From NCBI GenBank assembly GCA_017409785.1, contig JAFQSD010000004.1, forward strand, positions 48,663 through 112,662: DNA of 64,000 nucleotides, in the 5' to 3' direction. The position numbers were made by a program, and so were the translations under genes. Numbering within the stretch: the stretch's first letter is position 1; every line of letters starts with the position of its first letter. Of the stretch, positions 45,800 through 52,300 are shown in pieces. The notes beneath the pieces were generated by a model that saw only the letters and a program-made list of their open reading frames with translations, was not told where the DNA came from and made no database searches. The DNA comes from Bacilli bacterium. Lineage in GTDB: Bacteria; Bacillota_I; Bacilli_A; RF39; UBA660.

Positions 45800-45836
45800 T
45801 GTTATAATATGAAAGCGCTTAAGGGAGAGGAATATT
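45800..45836 (+). promoter_or_regulatory. extended -10 promoter plus short leader (module P1)
   Basis: TGTTATAAT at 45800-45808, then atgaaagcgcttaagggagagg before the ATG at 45837. Confidence 0.55.
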
Positions 45837-46352
45837 ATGGCAGATTTAAGAGATATATATTTTGTAGTAGGAAAAAACTTATTTGAAAAAGATTTTGATC
45901 ATCAAACAACTGAACAAAAGAAAAAGTTAGTTGAAGGTTCGTTAAAAACATATGTAGCATCAAAAATAGTAAGAGAAAGTACTGAACAAGCATTTAAACT
46001 AAGTGAAAATCCAAATGTATCTTTAGATGAATTAGTTGAATTACTAGGTGAATTAATTCCTGAAGAAAAACATTTTGATACAATGAGACATTTAACTCAC
46101 TTTATGTTAAATATTGCTGGAGAAATGCAAGGTTGGTCAATTACTTGGTGGGATGAACAATTTATTGATAATCCATTAATTAAGTTTAATGAAGAAGGTA
46201 AAATTGATTCATTAACTACTCATAAATCATCATCATATGTACAAACTTTTAAATTTGTACATGACGTTTTTACAAGTTCATTTATGAATGAAAAAAATCA
46301 AAACAAACAATATACTTTGAAAGATACAAGAAAACAAGAAAGTAACGCTTAG
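45837..46352 (+). CDS. hypothetical protein (orphan)
   Basis: 171 aa, mostly helical, with no recognisable motif. It has its own promoter. Confidence 0.5.
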   Translation: MADLRDIYFVVGKNLFEKDFDHQTTEQKKKLVEGSLKTYVASKIVRESTEQAFKLSENPNVSLDELVELLGELIPEEKHFDTMRHLTHFMLNIAGEMQGWSITWWDEQFIDNPLIKFNEEGKIDSLTTHKSSSYVQTFKFVHDVFTSSFMNEKNQNKQYTLKDTRKQESNA

Positions 46353-46390
46353 TTGCTTTCTTTTCTTTTATTGAAAATAAAAGAAAAATA

Positions 46391-46423
46391 TGTTAGTATA
46401 TAAGGCATTTAAGGGGGATATAT
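46391..46423 (+). promoter_or_regulatory. extended -10 promoter plus short leader (module P2)
   Basis: TGTTAGTAT at 46391-46399, then ataaggcatttaaggggga before the ATG at 46424. Confidence 0.5.
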
Positions 46424-51318: not shown

Positions 51319-51328
51319 GTAGACTAAA

Positions 51329-51375
51329 TACTTCCTACTCAAGTGCTACTATGTACTTGAAAGGAAGTGTTTTTT
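51329..51375 (+). terminator. intrinsic terminator whose 3' arm contains the only RBS-like sequence for the next gene
   Basis: acttcct..tcaagt-loop-acttga..aggaagt, then gT7. The next ATG is at 51377. Confidence 0.6.
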
Positions 51376-51376
51376 T

Positions 51377-52300
51377 ATGAAACCAAACATGCATGATAAT
51401 TTTAAATTACTTGAAGAAAGAGTATTAGACTCTTTAGAAAAAACAGACTTAGAAAGGATTAAATATCATCTAGAAAGAATAAAAACACCAACGATAACAA
51501 CAGGAGTAGGTGGTTCAAGTGTAGCAAGTAATTTTGCAGCTAAAGTACTAAGTACCAAGAATGGTATAATAGCAGAACACCAAGAACCACGTGATATGTT
51601 ATATAAGCCACTACAAGGATATGACAATGTATTAGCTTGTAGTTATGGTGGAAGAAACTATGGAGTAAAAACATCATTTGCCAATGATTTAAATAAGTAC
51701 TTACTATCAAGAAATATATCTGATAATGAAGGAGTAAATAATTTAACTTATGATGCTTCTTTACCGGATGAAGATAGTTTTATCTCATTAGCCGCAACAC
51801 TTATGCCAATGAGTGTAATGCTAGCATATTATAATGATAATGATATTTCAGTAATAAAAGAAATTTTAGAAACAGCAAGAAAATATAATGTTAATATAGA
51901 TAAAGTATATGAAATATTAACTGGCTATGACACATCAACTGCATCAATCTATTTAGATTCAACTTTGGCTGAAGCGGGATTAGCATCACCTGTGGTTCAT
52001 GATAAATATTCAATGTGTCATGGTAGAACAACTCTCTCATACCATCATGACCACTCCTTAATTCATCTAGATAGAGGTACCGAATTAGATAAACTATATA
52101 AAGAGGAACTACCACAATATTACAACGGAGTAATAACTCTTGAGGGTAAGTTTGATGATCCAATAGTGGATGACTTTTATCTAACATATCAAGCAATGCT
52201 TTTATCAAAAGCAATGGCAGAATCTAAGGGTAGAGACCTATCTAGAATGGCATATTCCCCAGCAGTAAAAAAACTATATCGCTATAGTGGCGAAATGTAG
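51377..52300 (+). CDS. hypothetical protein with SIS-fold-like N-region
   Basis: TGVGGSSVASNFAAKVLSTKNGIIAEH...YDNVLACSYGGRN resembles the SIS G-x-G-x-S...A and S-x-S-G pattern. The assignment is weak. Confidence 0.45.
   Translation: MKPNMHDNFKLLEERVLDSLEKTDLERIKYHLERIKTPTITTGVGGSSVASNFAAKVLSTKNGIIAEHQEPRDMLYKPLQGYDNVLACSYGGRNYGVKTSFANDLNKYLLSRNISDNEGVNNLTYDASLPDEDSFISLAATLMPMSVMLAYYNDNDISVIKEILETARKYNVNIDKVYEILTGYDTSTASIYLDSTLAEAGLASPVVHDKYSMCHGRTTLSYHHDHSLIHLDRGTELDKLYKEELPQYYNGVITLEGKFDDPIVDDFYLTYQAMLLSKAMAESKGRDLSRMAYSPAVKKLYRYSGEM

Follow-up and report, generated by a model that had tools for sequence, protein, structure and literature searches.

The 64,000-nucleotide stretch of a Bacilli bacterium genome analyzed here (contig JAFQSD010000004.1; hereafter the window) contains a two-gene operon, one gene encoding a protein of 976 amino acids (p976) and the other a partner of 229 amino acids (p229), and this pair is the invariant unit of the locus. 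An initial annotation of the window had grouped these genes with four neighbors, encoding a 171-aa orphan, an HD hydrolase, a WYL regulator, and a SIS-like protein of 307 aa (p307), as a candidate defense system. We favor a different reading and put its probability at roughly one half: the pair is an operon for a stoichiometric complex between a scaffolded, divergent GNAT-fold group-transfer enzyme and a partner that controls or targets it. The reading builds on the coupling of the two genes, their strict co-occurrence, the fold and the invariant residues of one domain of p976, purifying selection, and the absence of the large protein from mobile elements.

The open reading frames (ORFs) lie at the positions and on the strands given by the initial annotation. 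The stop codon of p976 and the start codon of p229 are separated by a single nucleotide, and the AGGAGG ribosome-binding site of p229, read directly from the sequence, is embedded in the 3′ end of the large gene, as had been described. A terminator-like hairpin with a T-run follows the 171-aa gene in the window and at the same place in all seven aligned clade A loci (see below for the clades), which separates that gene from the 976/229 operon. Downstream of the hairpin is a promoter-like site (TTGAAA, a 17-nt spacer, and a TG-extended TAGTAT) and then a conserved leader that includes a GGGGG ribosome-binding site. The window and six relatives (L001, L011, L123, L126, L127, and L128) keep both the −35 element and the −10 element TGnTAttAT, as well as the leader AGGGCATTTAAGGGGG; the coding sequences of these seven loci are only 47 to 85% identical. 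The claim of multiple strong promoters in the region is weaker than stated; this one promoter-like site upstream of p976 is conserved. The consensus scan itself showed no enrichment, with 101 sites compared to 104 in shuffled sequences. We take the two-gene operon at 46371 to 50045 to be the functional unit; it has a promoter-like site of its own, a terminator-like hairpin before it, and the ribosome-binding site of p229 embedded at the 1-nt junction. The 171-, 976-, and 229-aa proteins had been reported to belong to no known family, and indeed Pfam, NCBIfam, PADLOC, and PHROGs gave no significant match for them or for p307. We found no paralogues of these proteins within the window and no island signature in the base composition (guanine-plus-cytosine [GC] content of 0.26 to 0.32, versus about 0.27 for the window).

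A word-indexed search with the large protein returned 54 clusters, all at least 39% identical and none named. With one genome searched per species, 16 species carry it, and the carriers are almost all metagenome-assembled genomes of uncultured gut "Bacilli bacterium" lineages from water deer, rabbit, mouse, and similar hosts. We then compared all window proteins with 26 loci by tblastn. A p229 homologue lies directly 3′ of the large gene in 25 of the 25 loci with downstream DNA, and the same adjacency is present in 4 metagenome loci and 6 further loci. The large-protein family divides into two clades. Clade A (47 to 99% identical to p976 of the window) is monophyletic at a fixed locus and shares one chromosomal neighborhood, in the order (AdhE, kinase, 132-aa protein), Prs, LysR, radical SAM, variable genes, the pair, (HD), WYL, and p307. 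In clade B (40 to 46% identical, more than 20 loci), the pair occurs in unrelated neighborhoods, next to genes such as Tmk/ThyX, FtsW/MraY, L13/S9, Amidase_3/TetR/MMPL, and HtpG, and no homologue of the 171-aa, HD, WYL, or 307-aa protein is encoded within 10 kb of it. A related upstream gene outside clade A was considered and rejected, since the clade B upstream genes share no homology with one another or with the 171-aa gene.

This distribution bears on the model of the initial annotation, in which all six genes form one defense or stress system, with the WYL protein sensing a ligand and the HD protein acting as an effector or degrading a signal. Within clade A, the order 976-229-(HD)-WYL-307 is kept despite the variable genes upstream of the large gene, the WYL protein is highly conserved (83 to 95% identical to that of the window) and matches the PADLOC WYL model (E = 1.4e-30), and HD and WYL relatives occur in phages. 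However, the Prs, LysR, and AdhE flanks are kept as well (86 to 97% identity, with 79 to 86% for p307). WYL and p307 are linked to the pair in a single clade, the one in which Prs, LysR, and, mostly, the radical-SAM gene have also been retained, and shared descent explains this linkage. The expected co-occurrence of the pair with HD and WYL fails outside this one syntenic clade, and for HD it fails even within it, because two clade A loci (L123 and L128) have the pair, WYL, and p307 but no HD gene. The 171-aa gene forms a transcription unit of its own and is missing outside clade A. Furthermore, the invariant companion of WYL is p307 rather than the pair, the conserved promoter in front of the 976/229 operon shows no recognizable palindromic operator in the alignment of promoter and leader, and the phage homologues of HD and WYL occur in different records. 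A PADLOC check of the region returned only the generic WYL model. We consider the integrated six-gene system very unlikely: the 171-aa, HD, WYL, and 307-aa genes are neighbors that one clade inherited together with this part of the chromosome, not obligatory components. What stands of the earlier proposal is a real, coupled, and uncharacterized pair, and a local regulatory link between the WYL protein and the pair is conceivable. The case also carries a caution: a WYL and an HD gene beside orphan genes mimicked a defense island, and the comparative context shows inherited synteny.

In support of the initial annotation, gene content just upstream of the pair varies among relatives; the Prs and LysR flanks of clade A are stable. 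Compared to L001, L011, L123, L126, L127, and L128, the segment from 44463 to 46352, between LysR/radical SAM and the large gene, is a hot spot of gain and loss in an otherwise stable neighborhood. The radical-SAM gene is missing in L011 and a 111-aa gene in L001; other relatives have insertions that include Q_salvage, CoaE-like, NUDIX, 440-aa, and further ORFs.

We modeled p976 with AlphaFold2 from an alignment of 53 sequences (predicted local distance difference test score [pLDDT], 88.3; predicted template modeling score [pTM], 0.75). The long helical N-region noticed earlier was borne out, with the first 665 residues forming an all-alpha scaffold (regions N1, N2, and M), followed by two alpha/beta domains, C1 and C2. 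The reported lack of an enzyme motif in the C-terminal module was misleading, since C1 has the strand and helix order of the GNAT topology, b1-a1-a2-b2-b3-b4-a3-b5-(a4)-b6. Structures that resemble C1 belong to the GNAT superfamily: Naa40/NatD (4u9w), Gcn5 (1ygh), RimI (5isv), and PA3270 (1yre), at a sequence identity of 4 to 11%; Naa80, RimL, and the GNAT-like FemA were among the matches as well. Other structure matches of p976 were designed or natural helical repeats. From the model and these matches, the module with an H-C-C center described by the initial annotation is a divergent GNAT-like domain. Sequence profiles built from the 976 family, from the 229 family, and from C1 were run against the PDB without a usable match; one hit, 1ygm, had an E value of 0.11 and was disregarded. 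The small alpha/beta unit of C2 spans residues 861 to 940 in the model, and C2 accompanies C1 in a subset of relatives.

In an alignment of 19 diverse C1 domains, I672, P673, C704, R725, S739, R743, E754, and G800 are invariant. Across a set of 101 C1 sequences, P673, C704, R725, R743, and E754 are 100% conserved, and R667, I672, G698, and G800 are 98 to 99% conserved. The H-C-C motif is present in the window, but only its second cysteine, C704, is invariant across the wider family; H702 and C703 are not conserved. By the order of secondary structures, C704 would lie in the a1-a2 loop, R725 in b2, S739 and R743 in b3, and E754 at the end of b4. In GNATs, the acceptor binds and the general base lies in the corresponding region. 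That two arginines are invariant suggests a substrate carrying a phosphate or carboxylate group. We considered an R-S-E ADP-ribosyltransferase reading of R725, S739, and E754 and rejected it, since these residues are on three consecutive strands, only about 15 residues apart, in a GNAT-like fold.

An exhaustive profile search of 1.84 billion representative sequences found 1,001 proteins with C1 at an E value of ≤1e-3, 525 of them at ≤1e-10; a word-indexed search with the C1 profile had found 13 fragments only. Domain mapping showed that what the relatives have in common is C1 alone, sometimes with C2 or M, and that their N-termini are unrelated. C1 is usually C-terminal in proteins of 400 to 1,885 aa. 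The sampled C1-encoding loci are all low in GC (median, 28%), and C1-only genes adjoin GluRS, SMC, RuvA, and LexA without a conserved downstream partner. By a simple test, p976 has no signal peptide or transmembrane segment, and no hydrophobic segment is present at the N-terminus in 146 of 148 relatives. At 50% identity, C1 defines about 1,000 clusters, mostly very large cytoplasmic proteins from low-GC gut and rumen metagenomes. One of them (P0190, 1,885 aa) has long internal repeats of the form FLSxDAPxELKxxFY, and one locus (L040) has two C1 genes side by side. Two short relatives, P0104 (358 aa) and P0141 (344 aa), have a signal-peptide- or membrane-like start and may be secreted variants or assembly chimeras.

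The AlphaFold2 model of p229 (pLDDT, 85.9) has a helical N-terminal half and a C-terminal alpha/beta domain, and we found no fold match for it in the PDB. The family holds a cluster of invariant polar residues. The partner was found only beside large proteins with the full N1-N2-M-C1-C2 architecture and never adjoins proteins without N1 (C1-only, M-C1-C2, or N2-M-C1-C2). This restriction suggests that p229 acts together with the N1 scaffold and not with C1 itself.

The C-terminal domain of p229, residues 112 to 216 or so, is homologous to stand-alone phage proteins of about 90 to 110 aa, at 28 to 36% identity. The protein XCD07496.1 of Dulem virus 39 is 32% identical to this domain (pairwise E = 2e-14). 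Further carriers are Streptomyces phage Gilgamesh (gp28), Xanthomonas and Xylella phages, two megaplasmids, and at least 47 IMG/VR contigs (median ORF, 98 aa; GC, 40 to 69%). The motif common to p229 and the phage proteins is I-D/N-I...VLAALYN...P-G-G...(F/Y)D(Y/W)..GR...Y(D/N)R(D/E)NG. Within the phage and megaplasmid family, it reads VLAALYN...PxGxG...FDYxxGR...YDRDNGxGxA (IMG/VR contigs L076 to L122; L073, 5001 to 5297; L074, 2983 to 3309; L075, 3983 to 4270). No Pfam model covers the phage family, and its PHROG matches are weak and partial only (phrog_12532, function unannotated). The phage copies sit in arrays of small early genes. Larger neighbors include a Tad3-domain protein (Thoeris inhibitor), a C5 methylase, a Gam-like protein, a PD-(D/E)XK nuclease, PAPS reductase, Toprim, and RtcB, and in one group of viral contigs, the Tad3-domain protein is encoded right after the small-domain gene. 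This neighborhood context is qualitative, as the recurrent clusters are mostly from one redundant contig set.

We estimated the ratio of nonsynonymous to synonymous substitution rates (dN/dS) by the Nei-Gojobori method against two relatives and one near-identical strain. The ratio was 0.09 to 0.14 for whole p976 (C1, 0.04 to 0.09; N1, 0.12 to 0.18) and 0.05 to 0.15 for p229, so both proteins are under purifying selection. Diversifying selection was rejected at the resolution of whole genes and of domains, at 0.04 to 0.18. Neighbors had ratios of 0.11 to 0.15 (ABC transporter), 0.06 to 0.18 (HD), 0.09 to 0.14 (p307), and 0.03 to 0.08 (AdhE, Prs, LysR, and WYL). In amino acid sequence, p976 and p229 diverge about 4 times as much as Prs, LysR, and AdhE; overall, the pair diverges 3 to 5 times faster than core housekeeping genes but not faster than the ABC transporter, HD, and 307-aa genes. 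Between the clades, C1 is the slowest part of the large protein (61 to 69% identity) and C2 the fastest diverging (22 to 29%), with N1 at 28 to 37%. The large-protein family has no match in IMG/VR (2.9 million viral contigs, searched by motif and profile), INPHARED phages, or PLSDB plasmids, and an origin of the large protein from a mobile element was rejected on these grounds.

In the mechanism that we favor, the large product would be a cytoplasmic protein of about 950 to 1,000 aa in which a helical scaffold of 665 residues carries C1 and C2. p229 would be made in step with it, and the two would form a stoichiometric complex. C1 would act as a group-transfer module of the acyl or aminoacyl type, and the partner would bind the fast-diverging N1 and C2 parts and control or target the enzyme. 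It is complex formation, catalysis, and the type of substrate that we infer here.

Several points weigh against this mechanism. The placement of the invariant residues rests on secondary-structure order, not on coordinates. In GNATs, the b4-a3 loop binds the pyrophosphate of coenzyme A (CoA) through motif A (Q/R-x-x-G-x-G/A), and this motif is missing from C1: among the 101 sequences, no position from 755 to 799 reaches 80% conservation, and the loop has indels. The missing loop suggests a donor other than free acetyl-CoA, but C1 could also be a pseudoenzyme or use unknown chemistry. Neither p976 nor any of 15 distant relatives matches a Pfam or NCBIfam model, acetyltransferase models (Acetyltransf_1/3/7/10 and similar) included. 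The large gene is interrupted near residues 600 to 627 in three lineages, close to the boundary between scaffold and C1, while the reading frames of both halves and of the partner are intact in all. In L009 (11855 to 11860), an in-frame TGA (EDI*LPIELKP) is followed by an intact frame of 343 codons, and this was seen in seven contigs. L123 (7812 to 7863) and L124 have overlapping ORFs of 620 and 387 aa, implying a frameshift, and L125 (7854 to 7947) has ORFs of 617 and 318 aa with a 92-nt gap. The interrupted copies may be functional split enzymes, cases of read-through or reinitiation, or recent pseudogenes that reflect recurrent inactivation; the interruptions are as compatible with a gene that is costly or dispensable as with a split enzyme. 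Finally, the phage homologues of the partner domain hint at a role in conflict.

An alternative is that the large protein is a noncatalytic scaffold, with its GNAT-like domain a binding pseudoenzyme and with a lineage-specific role in assembly or of a cytoskeleton-like kind. The canonical CoA-binding loop is not conserved, two-thirds of the protein is helical and repeat-like, no catalytic family model matches, and C1 ends very large proteins with repetitive N-termini. Yet the invariant set of C1 includes five polar or charged residues (a cysteine, two arginines, a serine, and a glutamate), and these, with the low dN/dS of the domain, are the usual signature of an active site. The partner also has an invariant polar cluster. 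A pure scaffold therefore appears rather improbable to us.

Another alternative is a chromosomal conflict module, whether toxin-antidote, abortive infection, or another type of defense, in which the GNAT domain would be the effector, analogous to GNAT toxins that acetylate tRNA, and p229 an inhibitor or sensor. Phages would then carry stand-alone versions of the C-terminal domain of the partner as part of a counterdefense repertoire. The homology of this domain to proteins of about 98 aa in viral contigs and several isolated phages speaks for such a module, as does the place of the phage copies among small early genes near Tad3, C5 methylase, Gam, PD-(D/E)XK nuclease, and RtcB. So do the tight translational coupling, the broken large gene beside an intact partner, the variable gene content just upstream of the pair, and the fourfold-higher amino acid divergence. 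However, that divergence comes with a dN/dS of about 0.1, no higher than that of the ABC transporter, HD, and 307-aa genes, and the monophyly of clade A at a fixed locus points to vertical inheritance. The pair has no PADLOC match, the large protein is absent from the viral and plasmid collections, and the C1-only relatives beside GluRS, SMC, RuvA, and LexA have no partner. The GC content of the phages with the small domain indicates hosts that differ from the C1 carriers. Moreover, the size and gene order of the pair are unlike those of known pairs of GNAT toxin and ribbon-helix-helix (RHH) antitoxin. On this analysis, we judge a conflict module unlikely. A more specific version is an undescribed effector-antidote module, in which a scaffolded GNAT-fold enzyme working without the canonical CoA site would modify a nucleic acid or nucleotide-linked target and p229 would restrain it, the partner domain being the cellular version of the phage early-protein family. 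We regard this version as quite unlikely; if true, the phage family would be a new class of counterdefense or ligand-binding domain.

The pair differs from the closest known systems. C1 shares the fold of the GNAT superfamily but differs by its invariant cysteine and two arginines, by the lack of motif A, and by its place at the C-terminus of a helical protein of about 1,000 aa with an obligate partner gene. FemA/FemX aminoacyl-tRNA-dependent transferases (FemA, 1lrz) are GNAT-like and likewise do not use the CoA loop, but they have no sequence similarity to C1. FemA has a tandem GNAT-like architecture with a coiled-coil insert, and no context of peptidoglycan synthesis is kept around the pair. 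GNAT type II toxins (TacT, AtaT, ItaT, and KacT) are similar in that a GNAT-fold protein is encoded in a tightly coupled two-gene operon, and the analogy would account for repeated inactivation of the large gene beside an intact partner. Those toxins are about 170 aa long, retain the motif for acetyl-CoA, and are encoded behind a small gene for an RHH antitoxin. In contrast, the protein here has 976 aa, and its partner is downstream, has 229 aa, and has no RHH, helix-turn-helix (HTH), or DNA-binding match. Nor does the pair resemble a polymorphic toxin: the large protein has no signal peptide or known trafficking domain, its C-terminal C1 is the most conserved part rather than a variable one, and C1-only proteins have no downstream partner. 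WYL-regulated islands (BrxR-BREX, CapW-CBASS, and CRISPR-associated WYL) also have an HTH-WYL protein nearby. Here, however, the WYL gene is downstream rather than upstream or divergent, is found with the pair in one syntenic clade only, and is accompanied by no known effector in PADLOC. In PADLOC-DB v2, no core protein of a system was found beyond the strong generic WYL match; SspB (E = 6e-4, HD protein) and pVip (E = 1.3e-3, radical-SAM protein) were below the threshold. The phage proteins Gilgamesh gp28 and XCD07496.1 share the C-terminal motif of p229 but lack its helical N-half, are not encoded beside C1 genes, and come from unrelated hosts of higher GC.

While the GNAT fold class is already known, the sequence family, the invariant set, the fusion to a scaffold, and the obligate partner appear undescribed in the libraries searched, and the partner domain family common to bacteria and phages appears to be likewise unannotated there. 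Two domain families without a Pfam or NCBIfam model emerge: a GNAT-fold domain without the CoA loop that has a Cys/Arg/Ser/Arg/Glu set, and a domain of about 100 residues found in bacteria and phages. Assigning functions to them would annotate a sizeable part of the dark matter of uncultured Bacilli and could reveal GNAT-type chemistry with a donor other than CoA. The features of the pair and its surroundings are listed in Table 1.

Table 1. Coordinates of the pair, its parts, and adjacent features in the window
Feature	Position	Strand	Basis or remark
171-aa orphan gene	45837-46352	+	Separate transcription unit; clade A only
Terminator-like hairpin and T-run after 171-aa gene	46336-46362	+	Terminator scan; alignment of clade A loci
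Promoter-like site of 976/229 operon	46371-46399	+	Scan
976-aa large gene (p976)	46424-49354	+	TAA stop at 49352-49354
p976 residues 1-665, all-alpha scaffold: N1 (1-300), N2 (301-480), M (481-665)	46424-48418	+	AlphaFold2
p976 C1, residues 666-860, divergent GNAT-like alpha/beta fold	48419-49003	+	AlphaFold2; predicted order b-b-a-a-b-b-b-a-b
p976 C2, residues 861-976 and stop, small alpha/beta domain and variable tail	49004-49354	+	AlphaFold2; helix 870-888, strands 899-922, helix 927-939
AGGAGG ribosome-binding site of p229	49343-49348	+	Inside 3′ end of 976-aa gene; direct sequence reading
229-aa partner gene (p229)	49356-50045	+	ATG at 49356
p229 helical N-half, residues 1-105		+	AlphaFold2
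p229 C-terminal alpha/beta domain, residues ~112-216	49689-50003	+	AlphaFold2
212-aa HD-domain gene	50064-50702	+	Facultative neighbor
199-aa HTH-WYL gene	50719-51318	+	Neighbor kept throughout clade A
Conserved hairpin and T-run between WYL and 307-aa gene	51326-51376	+	Alignment of six loci
307-aa gene (p307)	51377-52300	+	Constant companion of WYL gene in clade A

Homologues of the 171-aa protein are 42 to 79% identical, and they do not always adjoin the pair. Its gene had a dN/dS of 0.04 to 0.34 (0.22 to 0.34 versus two relatives) and evolves under relaxed constraint. The HD and HTH-WYL calls of the initial annotation were confirmed by Pfam, PHROG, and PADLOC matches. The 212-aa protein has an HD domain (PF01966, E = 1.7e-7, 32 bits versus a cutoff of 22; phrog_3921, E = 6e-31), with NCBIfam HDIG and PRK10119 matches below the cutoff. 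Its gene is present in the window, L001, L011, L126, and L129; L123 has a 72-aa ORF instead, and in L128, WYL directly follows the p229 homologue. The start of the HD gene is uncertain: the ATG at 50064 lacks a recognizable Shine-Dalgarno sequence, another ATG follows in frame at 50073, and the relatives are annotated with 208 to 209 aa. The 199-aa protein has HTH_11 and WYL domains (PF13280, E = 1.2e-16) and a dN/dS of about 0.05. Its gene begins 674 nt 3′ of the pair and is adjacent to HD as described, with a gap of 16 nt rather than 17, and in clade A it is always followed by p307. The 307-aa protein has no Pfam match, and the one weak hint of an SIS domain is a match below the cutoff to NCBIfam TIGR02128 (E = 0.013, 14.5 bits versus a cutoff of 213.9, residues 26 to 92).

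A hairpin before the 307-aa gene had been noted, and both the sequence and an alignment of six loci (window, L001, L011, L123, L126, and L128) bear it out. It has 11 invariant outer base pairs, and RNAalifold gave −15.2 kcal/mol with 18 pairs, one of them compensatory, in the inner stem. The element lies directly before the ATG of p307, and its 3′ arm contains the AGGAAG ribosome-binding site of that gene (51362 to 51367). Since there is no room for a promoter after the hairpin and the ribosome-binding site is in the 3′ arm, expression of p307 would need read-through and unmasking. Judged by its sequence, the hairpin may serve as an attenuator or other regulatory element and not simply as a terminator. 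In a near-identical strain (L129, 6526 to 7278), p307 has a dS of 0.275, compared to about 0.01 to 0.09 for p111, p171, p976, p229, HD, and WYL, which suggests a recombination breakpoint at or just before p307.

Within the hot spot, the radical-SAM protein (44463 to 45446) is RlmN/Cfr-like far below the cutoff (TIGR00048, 93 bits versus 290) and matches phrog_27142 (E = 1.7e-17). The gene had been described as one of a pair; it is present upstream as stated but not obligately paired with the 111-aa ORF. The 132-aa protein (41802 to 42200), presumably the "HNH gene" of the initial annotation, has no Pfam, NCBIfam, PADLOC, or PHROG match at an E value of ≤0.1; it is syntenic in clade A, at 61 to 88% identity. 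Farther downstream, a T-box leader (60127 to 60317; Rfam RF00230, 93.1 bits) precedes a 412-aa ORF (60436 to 61674), and in L126, the annotation places a 412-aa tRNA-synt_1b (TyrRS-type) gene 3′ of this neighborhood.

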